Program-made: the position numbers and the translations under genes
Assembly: GCF_036507355.1 (NCBI RefSeq)
Contig: NZ_AP027879.1
Strand: one strand, 5' to 3'
From: Escherichia coli
GTDB lineage: Bacteria; Pseudomonadota; Gammaproteobacteria; Enterobacterales; Enterobacteriaceae
Length of the DNA: 47,389 bases
Notes under the pieces: model-generated
Told to the model about the DNA's origin: nothing
Databases searched by the model: none
The model's input: the letters and a program-made list of their open reading frames with translations, nothing else
Part shown: piece by piece, positions 2,152 to 41,053 of the stretch
How the letters are laid out: each line of letters opens with the position of its first letter
Numbering within the stretch: the first letter of the stretch is position 1

Positions 2152-3129
2152 ATGAGATATTTAACCGAATTGATCTGTGACCTCTACAGGTTGACAGATC
2201 ACCATAAACTGACCACAGCAACGTTTAAAAATCTTGCTGATATTAAGTTATTTAAACCTACAGCAGATGCAGACACCATATTGCAGCTTGAAAATATATT
2301 TAGCGAATACTCACTGAGATATATTGACAAGGATCTGGCTGAAATTCTGAGCAACTTAATAACTACAGATAAGAAACACTCTCTGGACTTCGATTTTAAC
2401 AAAATACAATCTCTGACTGACTCGAAAAGTTTCGGTTGTGGATGGAGCAAGGTAATAAATGGTAGTTGGTTCAAAGATCTTTATTCTTGGGGAGAGGGGA
2501 TGTATCCTGCCGAAAATCTGAAAGCTGAAAATATTTTAGACTGGAAAGATAATATATGGCACATTGAGCATGAAGGTTTCCCCCCACGCCCCCCTATTAA
2601 TGTTAAATATTATTCTTGGTTTGACCGATATGTAGCTTCAAACAGTGGTGGCTCACATCATGCAGCAATGGTTGTATATCAATCAGTCAGAGACGGGTTA
2701 GAGTATAAAAGAGAAGCTGTTATTAAACAACTGAGTATAGACCCAGGCACTGTTGAAATACTTGATAAGAATTACTATTCATTCATATTCCAGATCAAAA
2801 CCCTTAATAAAGAAACTAGAATTTATACATCTGAATACGAGTTTACAGATGCTTTAAAAGACTTTGGACAAAACAGACATACCATACTTAAACCTGTTAA
2901 TTACGTTTCCAACATAAAATTAGTATTTATTCCAAAAGATGCATTAAAAACAAATAGCGAGACATTCCGCAACTGGTTTCATTCTGCAATTAGCTGCGGA
3001 AAAATAATATCACTCCCTGATTATCTGAAAAATCCAGCACATTATCATACACTTCATTACTCACATGAAGTAGACTCAATAACACTTGGCGACCCAAGCA
3101 GAAAATTTAAACTGAAAGGAGATTCTTAG
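2152..3129 (+). CDS. Hypothetical protein, 325 aa, AT-rich, no recognised family
   Basis: Long uninterrupted ORF; no motif I can assign. Confidence 0.6.
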   Translation: MRYLTELICDLYRLTDHHKLTTATFKNLADIKLFKPTADADTILQLENIFSEYSLRYIDKDLAEILSNLITTDKKHSLDFDFNKIQSLTDSKSFGCGWSKVINGSWFKDLYSWGEGMYPAENLKAENILDWKDNIWHIEHEGFPPRPPINVKYYSWFDRYVASNSGGSHHAAMVVYQSVRDGLEYKREAVIKQLSIDPGTVEILDKNYYSFIFQIKTLNKETRIYTSEYEFTDALKDFGQNRHTILKPVNYVSNIKLVFIPKDALKTNSETFRNWFHSAISCGKIISLPDYLKNPAHYHTLHYSHEVDSITLGDPSRKFKLKGDS

Positions 3130-3482
3130 CTTTTATATAAAAAATCAATGTTATCATTTGTCAGAAGATCAGCGAGGGTAATACATTCAAGAACCACAAT
3201 ATTTGTTCCTTCCAACAAACTGGCATCAAGTATCTTATCGAAGCTGATAATCATCATTGGCTTGCGTTGTGTTAAATCAAAGATTACCAATGGAAGTATT
3301 ACACTGTTAATTAATTCAAACTCTTTAAAGAAAGCATCAGTGCCATACTCACTGGCTGGAAAAAGAATCTCAATTAATCTCACACCATAAAAAACATGGT
3401 AGTTTTCTTTAAGGTTATCCTTTAAAATATTAACAGCCTTAGTATATTTTTCGTTAATAAACTCTCTCACCTGATATTCCAT
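3126..3482 (-). CDS. Hypothetical protein, about 119 aa, convergent with the 325-aa ORF
   Basis: Likely start MEYQVREF at 3482 preceded by GGAG; ORF track extends to 3551; stop codons of the two genes overlap in ttag at 3126-3129. Confidence 0.5.
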   Translation of the reverse strand: MEYQVREFINEKYTKAVNILKDNLKENYHVFYGVRLIEILFPASEYGTDAFFKEFELINSVILPLVIFDLTQRKPMMIISFDKILDASLLEGTNIVVLECITLADLLTNDNIDFLYKS

Positions 3483-3618
3483 AAAATTCTCCGACAAGAA
3501 CCGACTGTAGGTCACCGGGCAAACGTTGCAGAATGGCGTCAGAGACGTCATTTTGCGGCGTTTGCCCTATCCTGCATCGCAGTGAAAAGGCAGGGACTGG
3601 CATAACTGCTGAGTAGCA

Positions 3619-3882
3619 TCATTGCTGGCTTATCTCGCTACTGTTCTCGGTGCTTTCGTCCGCAGGTTCGGGAACAAGTAACTTGTGCCAAGGCATAGTT
3701 TTGTTGAGCAGCTCCATCAGAGGCTCAGCCAGCAGTCCCAAAATCCAGGTTGCCGTAATCACCGGTATAGTCAGATTTTGTGGCGTCCATAACTGGTGAT
3801 CGAGATGATACCAAGTGATGACACACAAAATACCACCCAGCCAGAATACAGCCCATTTAAACGCACCAAGAATGGCTAACAC
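3619..3882 (-). CDS. Small hydrophobic membrane protein; possibly the C-terminal part of a gene interrupted by an in-frame TGA
   Basis: 87-aa hydrophobic ORF with GTG start; an in-frame upstream ORF (ATG at 4065, MAKIYQFPQGEERAKF, 41 codons) ends at TGA 3942-3940. Confidence 0.45.
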   Translation of the reverse strand: MLAILGAFKWAVFWLGGILCVITWYHLDHQLWTPQNLTIPVITATWILGLLAEPLMELLNKTMPWHKLLVPEPADESTENSSEISQQ

Positions 3883-4104
3883 AAAAACAAAGATAAAATG
3901 TAAAACACTCGCGACAAGAAGACGAAGATAAAACCATCCTCAGCCAAGCCACTTAACAAAAGTGCTCCCTGTTTTCACTGCAAAACGTTTCTTACGCTCC
4001 CTGGCAATTTCTTTCCTGAATTTAGCACGTTCTTCCCCCTGAGGGAATTGATAGATTTTAGCCATGAGCTACCTCATTTCGATCTCAAAACGAAGTTTAT
4101 GCAA

Positions 4105-4941
4105 TTATCCTCTGAAACCGTATGGTATTCTGATATCTAAGCCCTCACTTTCTTTATCTATTTTATAAGAAAACCTTAGCTTTGATGCTCTTCTTGCGAC
4201 TCTCTCAACGATTTTAACTTCGAGATGATTAATCTCTGTATATTGATTTATTTTTTCAATATTTTTTTGCAGAAAAACCTTATTAAAATCCTTAAAATTC
4301 TGATAAAGGTAAACTTTTTCGCCATTATCTATTCTGAATAATTCAAGTTCATCCTTTAATACATCTACTTCAATGTCGAAAAATGTCTTTTTACCACTGC
4401 TGTATTGTTTCCTGATAAACTGATAAAGCATATTTGAATTTTGATCAGCGAGTCTTACAGACGATATCAAAACCTGAGTAGTGTAAGAATCCTTTAACAT
4501 CGTGATATATGGCTCAATGACATGTGAAAAAGCAATATCAATATATCCTTCACTTTCAACATAATCACAAAACGCAGTCAGGTTCATAAGCCTGACTGCA
4601 TCAGAAGGTAATTTACCTCTCTTCTTCGTATGTCCAGAGCTTTGATTGCCCTGAGGTGTGAGAAGTTGATTTCGAGGAATGCGAATAACACTGGCCTGAA
4701 GTTCTTCTGCCCCCTCTTTCAACTGCCGGTAAGCACCTGTTACATCAATATCAGCGATAAATGCATATTCCCGAGCCGTAATACGAAAGGTTGCCCCCTC
4801 AGATAACTCTTCACGTGAATCAATCTGCGCCATAGCCATAAACAAAATTCTTCTGGCAGACAAAGGCAACGATGAGAATGTGCTGTTAATTTCATTTCTG
4901 TGGCGAATTTTTGTTTTCTTTGTAACGCTCAGTAAGTTCAT
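4105..4941 (-). CDS. repB: Rep_3-family iteron-plasmid replication initiator
   Basis: 278 aa; family assigned from overall resemblance to iteron-plasmid initiators; iterons and DnaA boxes lie directly upstream. Confidence 0.85.
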   Translation of the reverse strand: MNLLSVTKKTKIRHRNEINSTFSSLPLSARRILFMAMAQIDSREELSEGATFRITAREYAFIADIDVTGAYRQLKEGAEELQASVIRIPRNQLLTPQGNQSSGHTKKRGKLPSDAVRLMNLTAFCDYVESEGYIDIAFSHVIEPYITMLKDSYTTQVLISSVRLADQNSNMLYQFIRKQYSSGKKTFFDIEVDVLKDELELFRIDNGEKVYLYQNFKDFNKVFLQKNIEKINQYTEINHLEVKIVERVARRASKLRFSYKIDKESEGLDIRIPYGFRG

Positions 4942-5193
4942 ACATTACCTGTGGTTTTTAAGTTCTGATGGTGAAATCATAACCACAAAGGCGGAAATAT
5001 GTAAAGTGGTTTATCCACCTTATGTATTTCCACCAAAACACGGATCACATGAAAGAATTTTTATCATTTATATTCAATATGATAGAAATGCGCAGGTATC
5101 CACCTTTTAACGTCATACGTTAAATTAGAGCACTATAAAGAACTAAAGAAATGAAGATACAAAGATACGAATATCTGAATAAAAACAGAAAAA

Positions 5194-5313
5194 TGCGTAC
5201 CCATCCACCTTTCAGTGCGTACCCATCCACCTTTCAGTGCGCAGCCATCCACCTTTCATGAAAATTACAGTGCGTACCCATCCACCTTTCAGTGCGTACC
5301 CATCCACCTTTCA
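5194..5313. repeat. Five 22-bp iterons (TGCGTACCCATCCACCTTTCAG) of the Rep_3 replicon
   Basis: Five near-identical direct repeats, two plus one plus two with an 11-bp spacer. Confidence 0.75.
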
Positions 5314-5484
5314 TTTTGAGGCGACAAAAAACAACACCTATCTTAATGAAATTATTGATAAAAAAGCTGGCACAATGTTTGCAGAATAAGTTAAAGTAAG
5401 TTAAAGATCTTAAAGTAGATCTACCGATCTACATTTAAGATCTTAAAAACAAGAAGTTTAATAAGCAAAAAAACACAAAAAATC

Positions 5485-5532
5485 TGTGGATAACTCTGCT
5501 CAAAACAAAAAATTCACAGCGCCTGTGGATAA
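5485..5532. promoter_or_regulatory. Two DnaA boxes (TGTGGATAA) beside an AT-rich stretch; part of oriV
   Basis: TTATCCACA consensus at 5485-5493 and 5524-5532; AT-rich region 5340-5480. Confidence 0.5.
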
Positions 5533-6174
5533 CTTTGCGTAAACCCGGAGGACAGATCACTCTGAACCAAGACAACCACACATAAAAACAATATGCTCAT
5601 TTTTTAACCACTGTGCGTAAGTGCCTAATGTAATCCCTGTGCTATTCCGCTTCCTCGCTCACTAACTCGCTACACTCGGTCGTTCGGCTGCGGCGAGCGG
5701 TGTCTCCTTTCTCAAAACCAGAAGAGTTCAGCTCATACGATCCGTTGATTGATCCTTTTTGGATCTTTCACTGAGAAGCCCTGAATCGCTTTCTGCCGCT
5801 TCGTTCGATACAACCATGGTGAAACCATGCGAAATCGAAAAAATCGCTCAGAATGCGATACAGCGCGTTTTAGAGGGTATTTACAAAACAGTCGTTGCCT
5901 TGAGGAAATTTTGATCAAGATTGAACTCCTATCCGGATCATGGCAACAGATCACAGCAACAAGGCCGCTAAAAAGCGTTGAGCGGCGTTAAAAACCGTTA
6001 AACCGTAGCTGACTACAACGAAACGGGAAAAAACGCTCAGAACGCGTTACAGAGCGTTTTAAGGCGATGTCGGAAAGAGCCATATCTCACCTGTTCTGAT
6101 GTTTTTCTCAACATAAGCACTTTTAAGAGTGCTTTTAAAGATGCTATTATGCCAATGAGACAAGCGGAGGGCTT

Positions 6175-6426
6175 ATGAGCTATCAAATTCTGACAACTAC
6201 AGCGGCCAGTATTACTGACCTGAAAAAAAATCCTATGGGAACCGTAGCTGAAGGTGAAGGGGACGCTGTTGCGATCCTGAACCGAAACGAACCGGCGTTC
6301 TATTGCGTTCCACCAAAACTTTACGCCTACTATCGGGAACTCGCTGAAGATGCTGAGTTAAACGCTGTTGCTGATGAGCGCATGAAAAACCCGGAAATTG
6401 TGAAGGTTAACCTGGATGACCTATGA
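6175..6426 (+). CDS. stbD: Phd/YefM-family antitoxin
   Basis: 83 aa; overlaps the downstream toxin gene in typical TA arrangement. Confidence 0.85.
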   Translation: MSYQILTTTAASITDLKKNPMGTVAEGEGDAVAILNRNEPAFYCVPPKLYAYYRELAEDAELNAVADERMKNPEIVKVNLDDL

Positions 6427-6697
6427 ACTGGCTTTTGACCGTAGAGCACTGAAGGAATGGCAGAAACTCGGCCACACCATCCGTGAACAATTCAAAAAGA
6501 AACTGGCAGAACGGCTGGAAAATCCACGCGTACCCGCAGCCCGGTTACATGGTCATGCTGATCGCTATAAAATCAAACTTCGTGCATCTGGCTACAGACT
6601 TGTATACCAAGTCATTGATGAGAAAGTCGTTTTACTCGTTATTGCCGTTGGAAGAAGGGAAAGCAGCGAAGTCTATCAGATCGCAGATTTGCGCTAA
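6416..6697 (+). CDS. stbE: RelE/ParE-family toxin
   Basis: 93 aa; 11-bp overlap with stbD. Confidence 0.85.
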   Translation: MTYELAFDRRALKEWQKLGHTIREQFKKKLAERLENPRVPAARLHGHADRYKIKLRASGYRLVYQVIDEKVVLLVIAVGRRESSEVYQIADLR

Positions 6698-6771: not shown

Positions 6772-7047
6772 GTGGCTTCTGTTTCTATCAGCTGTCCCTC
6801 CTGTTCAGCTACTGACGGGGTGGTGCGTAACGGCAAAAGCACCGCCGGACATCAGCGCTATCTCTGCTCTCACTGCCGTAAAACATGGCAACTGCAGTTC
6901 ACTTACACCGCTTCTCAACCCGGTACGCACCAGAAAATCATTGATATGGCCATGAATGGCGTTGGATGCCGGGCAACAGCCCGCATTATGGGCGTTGGCC
7001 TCAACACGATTTTACGTCACTTAAAAAACTCAGGCCGCAGTCGGTAA
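6772..7047 (+). CDS. insA: IS1 InsA
   Basis: 91-aa zinc-finger protein [16 protein letters not shown]. Confidence 0.85.
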
Positions 7048-7469
7048 CCTCGCGCATACAGCCGGGCAGTGACGTCATCGTCTGCGCGGAAATGGACGAA
7101 CAGTGGGGCTATGTCGGGGCTAAATCGCGCCAGCGCTGGCTGTTTTACGCGTATGACAGGCTCCGGAAGACGGTTGTTGCGCACGTATTCGGTGAACGCA
7201 CTATGGCGACGCTGGGGCGTCTTATGAGCCTGCTGTCACCCTTTGACGTGGTGATATGGATGACGGATGGCTGGCCGCTGTATGAATCCCGCCTGAAGGG
7301 AAAGCTGCACGTAATCAGCAAGCGATATACGCAGCGAATTGAGCGGCATAACCTGAATCTGAGGCAGCACCTGGCACGGCTGGGACGGAAGTCGCTGTCG
7401 TTCTCAAAATCGGTGGAGCTGCATGACAAAGTCATCGGGCATTATCTGAACATAAAACACTATCAGTAA
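6966..7469 (+). CDS. insB: IS1 InsB frame (expressed as InsAB by -1 frameshift)
   Basis: InsB-like translation in the -1 frame overlapping the insA 3' end. Confidence 0.8.
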
Positions 7470-7484
7470 GTTGGAGTCATTACC

Positions 7485-7787
7485 AACCAGTTCACCACCT
7501 ACTCGCTCCGCGATTGTGGCAGTCTTCGAAATCCCCGGACGATCCGCCTTTATGAAAGTCTTGCTCAATTCAAATCTTCAGGCTTATGGGTTACTACTCA
7601 TGCTTGGTTAAATGACCGTTTCGTCTTACCGGAATCCCAGCAGAAGAACTTGGCAGAGTTGAAACGATCTTTCCTTGATCCTGCACTCAAGCAGATAAAT
7701 GAGAAAACACCTTTACTTGCTAAGTATAGTATTGATGATTCAGGAAAATTTCTGTTCTCAATAATTGATAAGCAAAATCCCGTCTGA
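7485..7787 (+). pseudogene. repA: 3' remnant of a second replication initiator gene, 5'-truncated by IS1
   Basis: Open frame from the IS1 junction encoding a Rep-like C-terminus (WLNDRFVLPESQQKNLAELKRSF...) followed by 37-bp iterons. Confidence 0.5.
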
Positions 7788-7837
7788 CATAAATCAGCAC
7801 ACATGAGCCTGTCATTTGACAAATTTTTGTCATGAAG

Positions 7838-8370
7838 ATGGGCGGATTTCCACACAGCACCGGCGCCCGGTAAGGTGGGCGGATTTCCACACAGCACCGG
7901 CGCCCGGCAAGGTGGGCGGATTCCCACACGGCACCGGCGCGCGGCAAGGTGGGCGGATTCCCACACGGCACCGGCGCGCGGCAAGGTGGGCGGATTTCCA
8001 CACAGCACCGGCGCCCGGCAAGGTGGGCGGATTCCCACACGGCACCGGCGCGCGGCAAGGTGGGCGGATTCCCACACGGCACCGGCGCGCGGCAAGGTGG
8101 GCGGATTTCCACACAGCACCGGCGCCCGGCAAGGTGGGCGGATTCCCACACGGCACCGGCGCGCGGCAAGGTGGGCGGATTCCCACACGGCACCGGCGCG
8201 CGGCAAGGTGGGCGGATTTCCACACAGCACCGGCGCCCGGCAAGGTGGGCGGATTCCCACACGGCACCGGCGCGCGGCAAGGTGGGCGGATTCCCACACG
8301 GCACCGGCGCGCGGCAAGGTGGGCGGATTTCCACACGGCACCGGCGCCCGGCAAGGTGGGCCGATTCCCA
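7838..8370. repeat. About 14 tandem 37-bp iterons (GGGCGGATTYCCACACRGCACCGGCGCSCGGCAAGGT); IncN-like origin array
   Basis: Head-to-tail direct repeats with two alternating variants; no spacers. Confidence 0.75.
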
Positions 8371-12688: not shown

Positions 12689-13508
12689 GGCACTGTTGCA
12701 AAGTTAGCGATGAGGCAGCCTTTTGTCTTATTCAAAGGCCTTACATTTCAAAAACTCTGCTTACCAGGCGCATTTCGCCCAGGGGATCACCATAATAAAA
12801 TGCTGAGGCCTGGCCTTTGCGTAGTGCACGCATCACCTCAATACCTTTGATGGTGGCGTAAGCCGTCTTCATGGATTTAAATCCCAGCGTGGCGTTGATT
12901 ATCCGTTTCAGTTTGCCATGATCGCATTCAATCACGTTGTTCCGGTACTTAATCTGTCGGTGTTCAACGTCAGACGGGCACCGGCCTTCGCGTTTGAGCA
13001 GAGCAAGCGCGCGACCATAGGCGGGCGCTTTATCCGTGTTGATGAATCGCGGGATCTGCCACTTCTTCACGTTGTTGAGGATTTTACCCAGAAACCGGTA
13101 TGCAGCTTTGCTGTTACGACGGGAGGAGAGATAAAAATCGACAGTGCGGCCCCGGCTGTCGACGGCCCGGTACAGATACGCCCAGCGGCCATTGACCTTC
13201 ACGTAGGTTTCATCCATGTGCCACGGGCAAAGATCGGAAGGGTTACGCCAGTACCAGCGCAGCCGTTTTTCCATTTCAGGCGCATAACGCTGAACCCAGC
13301 GGTAAATCGTGGAGTGATCGACATTCACTCCGCGTTCAGCCAGCATCTCCTGCAGCTCACGGTAACTGATGCCGTATTTGCAGTACCAGCGTACGGCCCA
13401 CAGAATGATGTCACGCTGAAAATGCCGGCCTTTGAATGGGTTCATGTGCAGCTCCATCAGCAAAAGGGGATGATAAGTTTATCACCACCGACTATTTGCA
13501 ACAGTGCC
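12689..13508 (-). mobile_element. IS26, complete, 820 bp (copy a)
   Basis: 14-bp terminal IRs GGCACTGTTGCAAA; Tnp26 ORF. Confidence 0.95.
12741..13445 (-). CDS. tnp26: IS26 transposase Tnp26, N at position 184
   Basis: [18 protein letters not shown]...; residue 184 is N ([10 protein letters not shown]). Confidence 0.95.
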   Translation of the reverse strand: MNPFKGRHFQRDIILWAVRWYCKYGISYRELQEMLAERGVNVDHSTIYRWVQRYAPEMEKRLRWYWRNPSDLCPWHMDETYVKVNGRWAYLYRAVDSRGRTVDFYLSSRRNSKAAYRFLGKILNNVKKWQIPRFINTDKAPAYGRALALLKREGRCPSDVEHRQIKYRNNVIECDHGKLKRIINATLGFKSMKTAYATIKGIEVMRALRKGQASAFYYGDPLGEMRLVSRVFEM

Positions 13509-20600: not shown

Positions 20601-20816
20601 GTGCGCCCATGCCGCATTGCGAAGCAAAAGATAATCGGATAAAATGTAGCAATTCATATTCGTAAGCGTGGAGTAATCAGATGGGAAATTCCAAGTCAGC
20701 AGACAAGTAAGCCGCAACAACCAGTATTGTTGTTGCGGCGCTCTGTAAGGCTAGTCTCATCTGATTGCTGACGAGCAGACGTCGCCCGGTATTCCTTAAT
20801 CGAGGGTTGATTCGTC

Positions 20817-22031
20817 ATGACCACCACACGCCCCGCGTGGGCCTATACGCTGCCGGCAGCACTGCTGCTGATGGCTCCTTTCGACATCCTCGCTTCACTG
20901 GCGATGGATATTTATCTCCCTGTCGTTCCAGCGATGCCCGGCATCCTGAACACGACGCCCGCTATGATCCAACTCACGTTGAGCCTCTATATGGTGATGC
21001 TCGGCGTGGGCCAGGTGATTTTTGGTCCGCTCTCAGACAGAATCGGGCGACGGCCAATTCTACTTGCGGGCGCAACGGCTTTCGTCATTGCGTCTCTGGG
21101 AGCAGCTTGGTCTTCAACTGCACCGGCCTTTGTCGCTTTCCGTCTACTTCAAGCAGTGGGCGCGTCGGCCATGCTGGTGGCGACGTTCGCGACGGTTCGC
21201 GACGTTTATGCCAACCGTCCTGAGGGTGTCGTCATCTACGGCCTTTTCAGTTCGATTCTGGCGTTCGTGCCTGCGCTCGGCCCTATCGCCGGAGCATTGA
21301 TCGGCGAGTTCTTGGGATGGCAGGCGATATTCATTACTTTGGCTATACTGGCGATGCTCGCACTCCTAAATGCGGGTTTCAGGTGGCACGAAACCCGCCC
21401 TCTGGATCAAGTCAAGACGCGCCGATCTGTCTTGCCGATCTTCGCGAGTCCGGCTTTTTGGGTTTACACTGTCGGCTTTAGCGCCGGTATGGGCACCTAC
21501 TTCGTCTTCTTCTCGACGGCTACCCGTGTGCTCATAGGCCAAGCGGAATATTCCGAGATCGGATTCAGCTTTGCCTTCGCCACTGTCGCGCTTGTAATGA
21601 TCGTGACAGCCCGTTTCGCGAAGTCCTTTGTCGCCAGATGGGGCATCGCAGGATGCGTGGCGCGTGGGATGGCGTTGCTTGTTTGCGGAGCGGTCCTGTT
21701 GGGGATCGGCGAACTTTACGGCTCGCCGTCATTCCTCACCTTCATCCTACCGATGTGGGTTGTCGCGGTCGGTATTGTCTTCACGGTGTCCGTTACCGCG
21801 AACGGCGCTTTGGCAGAGTTCGACGACATCGCGGGATCAGCGGTCGCGTTCTACTTCTGCGTTCAAAGCCTGATAGTCAGCATTGTCGGGACATTGGCGG
21901 TGGCACTTTTAAACGGTGACACAGCGTGGCCCGTGATCTGTTACGCCACGGCGATGGCGGTACTGGTTTCGTTGGGGCTGGTGCTCCTTCGGCTCCGTGG
22001 GGCTGCCACCGAGAAGTCGCCAGTCGTCTAA
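20817..22031 (+). CDS. floR: Florfenicol/chloramphenicol MFS exporter FloR
   Basis: 404 aa starting MTTTRPAWAYTLPAALLLMAPFDIL; 12-TM MFS. Confidence 0.95.
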   Translation: MTTTRPAWAYTLPAALLLMAPFDILASLAMDIYLPVVPAMPGILNTTPAMIQLTLSLYMVMLGVGQVIFGPLSDRIGRRPILLAGATAFVIASLGAAWSSTAPAFVAFRLLQAVGASAMLVATFATVRDVYANRPEGVVIYGLFSSILAFVPALGPIAGALIGEFLGWQAIFITLAILAMLALLNAGFRWHETRPLDQVKTRRSVLPIFASPAFWVYTVGFSAGMGTYFVFFSTATRVLIGQAEYSEIGFSFAFATVALVMIVTARFAKSFVARWGIAGCVARGMALLVCGAVLLGIGELYGSPSFLTFILPMWVVAVGIVFTVSVTANGALAEFDDIAGSAVAFYFCVQSLIVSIVGTLAVALLNGDTAWPVICYATAMAVLVSLGLVLLRLRGAATEKSPVV

Positions 22032-24448: not shown

Positions 24449-25268
24449 GGCACTGTTGCAAAGTTAGCGATGAGGCAGCCTTTTGTCTTATTCAAAGGCC
24501 TTACATTTCAAAAACTCTGCTTACCAGGCGCATTTCGCCCAGGGGATCACCATAATAAAATGCTGAGGCCTGGCCTTTGCGTAGTGCACGCATCACCTCA
24601 ATACCTTTGATGGTGGCGTAAGCCGTCTTCATGGATTTAAATCCCAGCGTGGCGTTGATTATCCGTTTCAGTTTGCCATGATCGCATTCAATCACGTTGT
24701 TCCGGTACTTAATCTGTCGGTGTTCAACGTCAGACGGGCACCGGCCTTCGCGTTTGAGCAGAGCAAGCGCGCGACCATAGGCGGGCGCTTTATCCGTGTT
24801 GATGAATCGTGGGATCTGCCACTTCTTCACGTTGTTGAGGATTTTACCCAGAAACCGGTATGCAGCTTTGCTGTTACGACGGGAGGAGAGATAAAAATCG
24901 ACAGTGCGGCCCCGGCTGTCGACGGCCCGGTACAGATACGCCCAGCGGCCATTGACCTTCACGTAGGTTTCATCCATGTGCCACGGGCAAAGATCGGAAG
25001 GGTTACGCCAGTACCAGCGCAGCCGTTTTTCCATTTCAGGCGCATAACGCTGAACCCAGCGGTAAATCGTGGAGTGATCGACATTCACTCCGCGTTCAGC
25101 CAGCATCTCCTGCAGCTCACGGTAACTGATGCCGTATTTGCAGTACCAGCGTACGGCCCACAGAATGATGTCACGCTGAAAATGCCGGCCTTTGAATGGG
25201 TTCATGTGCAGCTCCATCAGCAAAAGGGGATGATAAGTTTATCACCACCGACTATTTGCAACAGTGCC
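24449..25268 (-). mobile_element. IS26, complete (copy c)
   Basis: 14-bp IRs, 820 bp. Confidence 0.95.
24501..25205 (-). CDS. tnp26: IS26 transposase Tnp26, N at position 184
   Basis: Same protein as copies a and b. Confidence 0.95.
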
Positions 25269-27526: not shown

Positions 27527-28362
27527 TGTTCATGCCGCCTGTTTTTCCTGCTCATTGGCACGTTTCGCAACCTGTTCTCATTGCGGACACCTTTTCCAGC
27601 CTCGTTTGGAAAGTTTCATTGCCAGACGGGACTCCTGCAATCGTCAAGGGATTGAAACCTATAAAAGACATTGCTGATGAACTGCGCGGGGCCGACTATC
27701 TGGTATGGCGCAATGGGAGGGGAGCAGTCCGGTTGCTCGGTCGTGAGAACAATCTGATGTTGCTCGAATATGCCGGGGAGCGAATGCTCTCTCACATCGT
27801 TGCCGAGCACGGCGACTACCAGGCGACCGAAATTGCAGCGGAACTAATGGCGAAGCTGTATGCCGCATCTGAGGAACCCCTGCCTTCTGCCCTTCTCCCG
27901 ATCCGGGATCGCTTTGCAGCTTTGTTTCAGCGGGCGCGCGATGATCAAAACGCAGGTTGTCAAACTGACTACGTCCACGCGGCGATTATAGCCGATCAAA
28001 TGATGAGCAATGCCTCGGAACTGCGTGGGCTACATGGCGATCTGCATCATGAAAACATCATGTTCTCCAGTCGCGGCTGGCTGGTGATAGATCCCGTCGG
28101 TCTGGTCGGTGAAGTGGGCTTTGGCGCCGCCAATATGTTCTACGATCCGGCTGACAGAGACGACCTTTGTCTCGATCCTAGACGCATTGCACAGATGGCG
28201 GACGCATTCTCTCGTGCGCTGGACGTCGATCCGCGTCGCCTGCTCGACCAGGCGTACGCTTATGGGTGCCTTTCCGCAGCTTGGAACGCGGATGGAGAAG
28301 AGGAGCAACGCGATCTAGCTATCGCGGCCGCGATCAAGCAGGTGCGACAGACGTCATACTAG
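27526..28362 (+). CDS. strB: Aminoglycoside 6-phosphotransferase APH(6)-Id
   Basis: 278 aa from MFMPPVFPAHW; 1-bp overlap with the strA stop. Confidence 0.95.
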   Translation: MFMPPVFPAHWHVSQPVLIADTFSSLVWKVSLPDGTPAIVKGLKPIKDIADELRGADYLVWRNGRGAVRLLGRENNLMLLEYAGERMLSHIVAEHGDYQATEIAAELMAKLYAASEEPLPSALLPIRDRFAALFQRARDDQNAGCQTDYVHAAIIADQMMSNASELRGLHGDLHHENIMFSSRGWLVIDPVGLVGEVGFGAANMFYDPADRDDLCLDPRRIAQMADAFSRALDVDPRRLLDQAYAYGCLSAAWNADGEEEQRDLAIAAAIKQVRQTSY

Positions 28363-37595: not shown

Positions 37596-38415
37596 GGCAC
37601 TGTTGCAAAGTTAGCGATGAGGCAGCCTTTTGTCTTATTCAAAGGCCTTACATTTCAAAAACTCTGCTTACCAGGCGCATTTCGCCCAGGGGATCACCAT
37701 AATAAAATGCTGAGGCCTGGCCTTTGCGTAGTGCACGCATCACCTCAATACCTTTGATGGTGGCGTAAGCCGTCTTCATGGATTTAAATCCCAGCGTGGC
37801 GCCGATTATCCGTTTCAGTTTGCCATGATCGCATTCAATCACGTTGTTCCGGTACTTAATCTGTCGGTGTTCAACGTCAGACGGGCACCGGCCTTCGCGT
37901 TTGAGCAGAGCAAGCGCGCGACCATAGGCGGGCGCTTTATCCGTGTTGATGAATCGCGGGATCTGCCACTTCTTCACGTTGTTGAGGATTTTACCCAGAA
38001 ACCGGTATGCAGCTTTGCTGTTACGACGGGAGGAGAGATAAAAATCGACAGTGCGGCCCCGGCTGTCGACGGCCCGGTACAGATACGCCCAGCGGCCATT
38101 GACCTTCACGTAGGTTTCATCCATGTGCCACGGGCAAAGATCGGAAGGGTTACGCCAGTACCAGCGCAGCCGTTTTTCCATTTCAGGCGCATAACGCTGA
38201 ACCCAGCGGTAAATCGTGGAGTGATCGACATTCACTCCGCGTTCAGCCAGCATCTCCTGCAGCTCACGGTAACTGATGCCGTATTTGCAGTACCAGCGTA
38301 CGGCCCACAGAATGATGTCACGCTGAAAATGCCGGCCTTTGAATGGGTTCATGTGCAGCTCCATCAGCAAAAGGGGATGATAAGTTTATCACCACCGACT
38401 ATTTGCAACAGTGCC
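37596..38415 (-). mobile_element. IS26, complete (copy d)
   Basis: 14-bp IRs, 820 bp. Confidence 0.95.
37648..38352 (-). CDS. tnp26: IS26 transposase Tnp26, G at position 184
   Basis: [10 protein letters not shown]. Confidence 0.95.
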   Translation of the reverse strand: MNPFKGRHFQRDIILWAVRWYCKYGISYRELQEMLAERGVNVDHSTIYRWVQRYAPEMEKRLRWYWRNPSDLCPWHMDETYVKVNGRWAYLYRAVDSRGRTVDFYLSSRRNSKAAYRFLGKILNNVKKWQIPRFINTDKAPAYGRALALLKREGRCPSDVEHRQIKYRNNVIECDHGKLKRIIGATLGFKSMKTAYATIKGIEVMRALRKGQASAFYYGDPLGEMRLVSRVFEM

Positions 38416-40233: not shown

Positions 40234-41053
40234 GGCACTGTTGCAAAGTTAGCGATGAGGCAGCCTTTTGTCTTATTCAAAGGCCTTACATTTCAAAAAC
40301 TCTGCTTACCAGGCGCATTTCGCCCAGGGGATCACCATAATAAAATGCTGAGGCCTGGCCTTTGCGTAGTGCACGCATCACCTCAATACCTTTGATGGTG
40401 GCGTAAGCCGTCTTCATGGATTTAAATCCCAGCGTGGCGCCGATTATCCGTTTCAGTTTGCCATGATCGCATTCAATCACGTTGTTCCGGTACTTAATCT
40501 GTCGGTGTTCAACGTCAGACGGGCACCGGCCTTCGCGTTTGAGCAGAGCAAGCGCGCGACCATAGGCGGGCGCTTTATCCGTGTTGATGAATCGCGGGAT
40601 CTGCCACTTCTTCACGTTGTTGAGGATTTTACCCAGAAACCGGTATGCAGCTTTGCTGTTACGACGGGAGGAGAGATAAAAATCGACAGTGCGGCCCCGG
40701 CTGTCGACGGCCCGGTACAGATACGCCCAGCGGCCATTGACCTTCACGTAGGTTTCATCCATGTGCCACGGGCAAAGATCGGAAGGGTTACGCCAGTACC
40801 AGCGCAGCCGTTTTTCCATTTCAGGCGCATAACGCTGAACCCAGCGGTAAATCGTGGAGTGATCGACATTCACTCCGCGTTCAGCCAGCATCTCCTGCAG
40901 CTCACGGTAACTGATGCCGTATTTGCAGTACCAGCGTACGGCCCACAGAATGATGTCACGCTGAAAATGCCGGCCTTTGAATGGGTTCATGTGCAGCTCC
41001 ATCAGCAAAAGGGGATGATAAGTTTATCACCACCGACTATTTGCAACAGTGCC
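40234..41053 (-). mobile_element. IS26, complete (copy e)
   Basis: 14-bp IRs, 820 bp. Confidence 0.95.
40286..40990 (-). CDS. tnp26: IS26 transposase Tnp26, G at position 184
   Basis: Same protein as copy d. Confidence 0.95.

Follow-up and report, generated by a model that had tools for sequence, protein, structure and literature searches.

Why does a small gene on an Escherichia coli plasmid carry a TGA codon within its frame, and does this codon reflect a mutation, a faulty sequence, a recoding signal or a boundary between two genes? The question arises in a stretch of 47,389 nucleotides of contig NZ_AP027879.1 (RefSeq assembly GCF_036507355.1), which was analyzed as a whole and is hereafter called the window. 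On the minus strand of the window, the ATG at 4065-4063 opens 41 codons (MAKIYQFPQGEERAKFRKEIARERKKRFAVKTGSTFVKWLG) that are ended by a TGA at 3942-3940, as seen in the strand read, its translation and the list of open reading frames (ORFs). The TGA is followed, in the same frame, by 19 sense codons and then by an 87-aa ORF with a GTG start (3882-3619); the whole frame, 4065-3619, comprises 148 codons and a terminal stop at 3621-3619. The first-pass annotation, made from the letters alone, had placed each of these elements correctly (ATG at 4065, 41 codons, TGA at 3942-3940, 19 codons, 87-aa ORF to 3619) and offered three options: that the stop arose by a recent nonsense mutation, that it is a sequencing error, or that the gene has two parts. 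By hand arithmetic, the probability that a 147-codon frame contains a single stop by chance is (61/64)^147, or about 9e-4, so the frame is not a chance feature, and comparison with homologues identifies it as a conserved gene.

The split gene and its neighborhood

The split gene lies directly downstream of an intact pir/repX gene of the same orientation (4105..4941, minus strand), which encodes a 278-aa initiator of the Rep_3/pi type annotated as replication initiation protein WP_001050931.1. A spacer of 39 nt separates the pir stop codon (TAA, 4107-4105) from the ATG and contains a Shine-Dalgarno sequence, GAGG, read from the sequence at 4072..4075 (minus strand), 6 nt 5' of the ATG. Upstream of pir, a candidate sigma-70-like promoter (TTTACA-18-TATGAT, 4976..5005, minus strand) was recognized by consensus match; because inspection of the spacer revealed no terminator-like site between the two genes, this promoter probably drives both together. 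A repeat search located the 22-bp gamma-origin iterons, with five copies at 5191-5311 and one at 5086-5107. On the other side, the downstream neighbor ddp3/taxD, which encodes DNA distortion polypeptide 3 (3126..3551, minus strand), fixes the locus as pir-bis-ddp3.

The split gene is bis, an auxiliary replication gene of IncX-type resistance plasmids, an identity supported by its position between pir and ddp3. The order pir-ORF-ddp3, on one strand, is common to the window, the IncX1, IncX3 and IncX5 plasmids and R6K. In IncX plasmids, bis has been described directly after pir/repX and ahead of ddp3 (PMC3402527), and in the IncX1 plasmid pECTm80, a 444-bp bis is located between ddp3 and repB (PMC3332091). 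The exact 148-aa sequence, once repaired at the stop, is present in UniRef as 'Auxiliary protein Bis' or 'Bis protein', and the protein is homologous, over its full length, both to the product of the R6K ORF and to entries that bear the name Bis. No second copy of bis and no second inverted-repeat arm were found within the window. Some annotations label Bis 'replication initiation protein'.

No Pfam or NCBIfam family covers Bis, all hits being sub-threshold (DUF2735 at residues 2-18, E 0.05, along with chance matches), and HMMER, run exhaustively against 1.8 billion cluster representatives, recovered 45 relatives only. The full-length relatives are 132-155 aa long and align from residue 1, and the most conserved part of the family is its start, MAKIYxFPxGxER, which is invariant from IncX1 to R6K. 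Codons 1-41 (3943..4065, minus strand), the translated remnant, contain this motif and encode a segment with 12 K/R against 4 D/E. With a net charge of +8, this segment agrees with the basic N-terminus that had been described in the first reading, and so does the downstream part with the hydrophobicity ascribed to it, the 19-residue Kyte-Doolittle mean reaching up to 2.76 after the stop. Codons 43-148 and the terminal stop (3619..3939, minus strand) encompass three helices that are predicted to be hydrophobic, followed by an acidic tail, and would remain untranslated except for rare readthrough.

The predictions describe Bis as a small, polytopic membrane protein that has three helices and begins with a basic segment. 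Hydropathy and the AlphaFold model of the intact protein, which is of moderate confidence (pLDDT 70.7, pTM 0.32), place helices at residues 11-68, 70-87 and 99-123, followed by the disordered acidic tail; the first of these is a basic N-terminal helix that continues into the first hydrophobic helix. The earlier description of a small membrane-protein gene is in line with these predictions, and left the gene itself, bis of the IncX replication module, unnamed. As for the 87-aa ORF, the frame is open as described, but GTG 3882 was rejected as the true start and is regarded as an artefact of ORF listing, because it falls within the first of the hydrophobic helices and lacks a ribosome-binding site.

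Origin of the in-frame stop

The nearest intact allele, on Salmonella plasmid CP074237.1, shows a single difference from the window in the 901 bp of pir-bis-ddp3, at base 3940 (G in place of A). The change from G to A at this base, on the minus strand, converts the ancestral TGG of Trp42 into the premature TGA (3940..3942), and in the DNA alignment, two intact IncX1 alleles carry TGG where the window has TGA. At the protein level, 10 of 11 homologues have Trp in the codon-42 column, the remaining one has Leu and R6K has Thr, so Trp42 is not invariant; nonetheless, the frame is always continuous, and the intact homologues, those from IncX1, X2/R6K, X3 and X5 as well as the more distant ones, are all single ORFs of 132-155 aa. 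The check for TGG at the position of the TGA, which had been proposed along with the three options, thus comes out in favor of a nonsense mutation.

The two parts of the frame also evolve alike. Nei-Gojobori estimates against an IncX1 variant (dS ~0.36) give a dN/dS of 0.075 in codons 1-41 and of 0.082 in codons 43-148; these similar, low values indicate that both parts are under purifying selection and make up one coding unit in the intact lineages. In search of a pi-binding cis element in or near bis that could explain the sequence conservation apart from coding, we scanned positions 3000-4950 and found no iteron or half-iteron at cut-offs of 7 mismatches per 22-mer, 2 per 12-nt core and 3 per 13-nt half-site.

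We are highly confident that the stop is a recent single-base nonsense mutation in bis (W42*) of the IncX1 backbone, inherited as one haplotype that marks a lineage. Among the options put forward earlier, it is the recent nonsense mutation that is upheld, given that the nearest intact allele differs at one base in 901 bp. In comparison with CP074237.1 and close plasmids, no additional mutation is found in bis after the stop, which fits a recent event and is no proof of relaxed selection. With a TGA at codon 42, against homologues with an uninterrupted ORF of about 132-155 codons, the window copy is a pseudogene allele rather than a functional member of the family. It falls into the RefSeq/PGAP category of a pseudogene by internal stop: the identical sequence in NZ_CP033093.1, a record that matches the window at 100% identity throughout the 3.9 kb of the comparison, is flagged there as pseudo, with an 'internal stop' (CDS 20737-21183). 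In GenBank MF554637, the two halves are annotated as two separate small hypothetical CDSs; the pseudogene annotation of RefSeq is right and the two-protein annotation is wrong.

The annotation of MF554637 would be expected if the allele had two functional products, that is, if the 41-aa peptide acted alone and/or the hydrophobic part were re-initiated, for example, at GTG 3882, in which case the split gene could go on providing Bis activity or provide a new one. Such an allele would retain, in its first product, the most conserved part of the Bis family, and the TGA allele does persist in many plasmids. Nevertheless, we consider this reading very improbable. Every homologue, down to 27% identity, is a single ORF, and the earlier option of a two-part gene is rejected on the same grounds. 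The first in-frame start after the stop is the GTG 19 codons on, in helix 1, which is preceded by a T-rich stretch without a Shine-Dalgarno sequence, and a nearby ATG at 3935-3933 is out of frame. Furthermore, a two-CDS annotation is the automatic output of gene callers that is expected at any nonsense allele.

A different possibility is that the real codon is TGG and that this assembly has introduced an artefactual TGA. The intact allele contains a GGGG run at the site (TGGGGA), and homopolymers are error-prone; the change, however, is a substitution and involves no indel. More importantly, the identical TGA allele is present in 133 PLSDB plasmids and in 101 replicons of RefSeq complete E. 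coli genomes, which come from different laboratories, hosts and countries. These counts were obtained with a 61-mer centered on codon 42, a query so short that any mismatch brings the identity below 99%. In PLSDB, the exact TGG version, with an otherwise identical context, was found in 339 plasmids, and the TGA allele accounts for about 17% of the plasmids with the region, its 133 records being counted among the 791 that match the TGG version of the 61-mer. The TGA allele resides on one common haplotype, and gene callers have reported both fragments from hundreds of independent contigs, the exact 41-aa fragment from at least 1000 public contigs and the 87-aa fragment from 636. An assembly artefact accordingly has a negligible probability, and the sequencing error suggested in the first-pass annotation is excluded.

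Finally, programmed recoding would make the full-length protein the normal product, with the UGA decoded as selenocysteine or passed by signal-stimulated readthrough. When the RNA around and after the UGA was folded, the only stable hairpin, at 3912-3945 (minus strand), spanned the stop and, at -13.3 kcal/mol, folded better than all 200 shuffles (z -3.1). Furthermore, no stop codon of E. coli is leakier than UGA, and its misreading by tRNA-Trp would restore the wild-type residue. However, the UGA is contained in the stem of the hairpin, whereas a bacterial SECIS-type stem-loop lies shortly downstream of the UGA, and no such downstream element is present here. A selenocysteine or recoding signal was rejected, given that the hairpin spans the stop and does so equally in TGG alleles. 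The homologues have TGG/Trp (or Leu/Thr) at this position, and never Cys or a conserved TGA, so that the UGA is neither conserved nor alternates with Cys. The stop is derived, occurs in one young haplotype and is called a pseudogene by PGAP. Taken together, these observations render recoding highly unlikely, and the nonsense mutation is the reading that we follow below.

The plasmid lineage of the TGA allele

All seven TGA plasmids examined are identical to the window over 3150-5700, save a partial iteron gap in one. Close TGG plasmids show a few further differences elsewhere in this region. Since the seven share one haplotype and the TGG plasmids differ elsewhere, this pattern indicates that the TGA allele had one origin and then spread in one plasmid haplotype. 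Some carriers have IncX1 as the sole replicon (plasmids of 33 and 45 kb), and others are hybrids with IncFIA/FIB, IncR and IncI-gamma/K1 replicons. Sources of the carriers include pigs, chickens, humans and water, for the most part in China, and the sublineage includes pNT1F25-tetX4 along with the IncF/IncR/IncI hybrids. The G-to-A change in codon 42 is a clean single-base marker of this IncX1 backbone sublineage. The frequency of the allele could mean that it is neutral, mildly beneficial or leaky, and not simply broken.

Two further observations concern the carriers. In NZ_CP126344.1, an IncR/IncX1 hybrid of the TGA lineage, part of the gamma-origin iteron array is missing (window 5240-5313). 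The longest contig with the split allele measures 5.68 Mb, and 1 of 481 E. coli matches is chromosomal, so this IncX1 module seems to have been integrated into a chromosome at least once.

The backbone of the window is, by its sequence, that of an IncX1 plasmid. Megablast with positions 3400-4300 retrieved 2113 plasmid records, mainly from Escherichia, Klebsiella and Salmonella and with many of them typed as IncX1, and the same region matches 985 replicons of complete E. coli genomes. The window also contains a DUF6685 gene, a small CopG-like gene, parA, a resolvase gene and a toxin-antitoxin pair (6175-6697) that consists of a relE/parE-type toxin and a plasmid-stabilisation protein; the corresponding pair of IncX plasmids has been named stbDE (PMC3402527). 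The remainder of the window is a mosaic resistance region with floR, tet(A), qnrS1, blaTEM-1, intI1, IS26 and others, the names of these resistance modules being taken from the matching records. In the plasmid databases searched, no single plasmid spans the whole window.

Four ORFs of equal length, 240 aa, with TTG starts are located on the minus strand at 12741-13463, 24501-25223, 37648-38370 and 40286-41008. They are probably copies of the IS26 transposase that flank resistance modules, and as such point to a mosaic built by IS26. Another Rep_3-type initiator, the second in the window, is represented at 7485-7787 (plus strand) by roughly its last 100 codons, which match Pfam Rep3_C (E 1.9e-7, above the cut-off) and are truncated on the 5' side beside an IS1-type element (ORFs 6772-7469). 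On the 3' side of this remnant, a GC-rich tandem array (7835-8370; 37 bp x 14.5) has long ORFs in all six frames. IncN pCU1-type origins presumably carry 37-bp iterons, and the segment 7485-8370 looks like the remnant of another iteron-type replicon; DNA similar to this region is present in at least 5000 plasmid records.

In some IncX1 plasmids, for example, NZ_AP027641.1 (860-2562), two tandem pir-type initiator genes precede an intact bis, and the two-pir arrangement recurs in five other plasmid matches (H7-H9, H37 and H38); a comparable repX/repX2 arrangement has been described (PMC3402527). In the Shigella plasmid NZ_CP020341.1, which is typed as IncX1 and IncX3, pir and the gamma-origin region differ from the window at hundreds of sites, whereas bis and ddp3 are nearly identical to those of the window. 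The switch falls within the pir-bis spacer (window 4069-4078), which suggests a recombination breakpoint there relative to the window.

Predicted consequences for replication and comparison with known systems

Translation from the ATG at 4065 would end after 41 residues. Codon 42 is the start of the hydrophobic part, and the stop removes all three predicted helices; the product would be a basic peptide (net +8) without the hydrophobic helices that form the conserved body of Bis. From the loss of this three-helix body, we infer that the TGA allele is null or strongly hypomorphic. Near-cognate reading of UGA by tRNA-Trp would yield small amounts of exactly wild-type Bis, and the 41-aa remnant might keep some activity, considering that it holds the most conserved motif of the family.

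In R6K, inactivation of bis is reported to abolish the activity of the beta-origin and not that of alpha or gamma, as cited in PMC6416368 from PMID 3013894. By analogy, the plasmid of the window would lose or weaken beta-origin firing, and replication would continue from the gamma-origin iterons with the pi protein, both of which are intact here. The plasmid is then likely to be devoid, or nearly devoid, of Bis and of beta-origin activity. The carriers with IncX1 as the only replicon fit replication without functional Bis. This natural knock-out in IncX1-only plasmids suggests that plasmids can be maintained in the field without Bis and, by inference, without the beta origin, which agrees with R6K genetics.

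It is also conceivable, if unlikely, that the TGA allele is a selected hypomorph, with trace amounts of wild-type Bis made by tRNA-Trp, or that the loss of Bis and beta firing, or the free 41-aa peptide, benefits a multidrug-resistance IncX1 lineage, with Bis itself being a polytopic membrane protein. Were the allele selected, the beneficiary would be an IncX1 lineage that is found in pigs, poultry, humans and water and is fused with IncF, IncR and IncI replicons; were Bis indeed polytopic, membrane involvement in the activation of the beta-origin would be implied.

The locus is already known as an ordinary pseudogene in RefSeq, and both the gene and the plasmid family are known as well. A literature search for a nonsense allele of bis returned nothing relevant. 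The allele frequency, and the prediction of Bis as a membrane protein that lacks a curated family, were not found stated in the papers searched; these are minor additions, of small importance for biology at large.

Among the known systems, R6K (IncX2) provides the functional reference. Its Bis is an auxiliary protein that is required, together with pi, for replication from the beta-origin (Mukhopadhyay, Filutowicz and Helinski 1986, PMID 3013894, as cited in PMC6416368 and PMC3402527). Expression coupled to that of pir is likewise known from R6K genetics (cited in PMC6416368). As in the window, bis of R6K (record NZ_LT827129.1; CDS after pir, 27527-27982) immediately follows pir, precedes ddp3 and shares their strand. 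The encoded protein has 151 aa compared to 148 aa in the window, and with the window stop read as Trp for the alignment, homology covers the full length (38% identity, E 3e-42; R6K 27527-27979), including the invariant N-terminal motif and the hydrophobic core. Unlike the window copy, with its stop at codon 42, the R6K gene is intact, and the residue aligned to Trp42 is Thr. Moreover, pir and bis are 3 nt apart in R6K, compared to 39 nt with a separate Shine-Dalgarno sequence in the window, so translational coupling may differ between the two.

Closer relatives occupy the same place in IncX3 and IncX5 plasmids, where the homologues have 147 aa and are, respectively, 58% and 56% identical to the window protein. 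The closest is the intact IncX1 Bis (UniRef D0QMK7; RefSeq WP_001074386.1, 'hypothetical protein'), which is identical save for codon 42 (TGG versus TGA) and belongs to the same backbone haplotype apart from a few SNPs; this intact allele is the commoner one, with 339 exact 61-mers in PLSDB against 133 for TGA. Bacterial selenoprotein genes resemble the split gene in that an in-frame UGA lies inside a conserved ORF; they differ from it in that here there is no downstream SECIS-type element and no Cys/Sec alternation, and the ancestral codon is that of Trp.

A parallel in outcome comes from the epidemic NDM-5 IncX3 plasmids, in which bis is disrupted by Tn5403 and the spread of which was judged unlikely to be impaired (PMC6416368). 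The disrupted gene belongs to another subgroup, that with the Bis 58% identical to the window protein, and represents an independent natural loss, by transposon insertion there and by a point nonsense mutation here.
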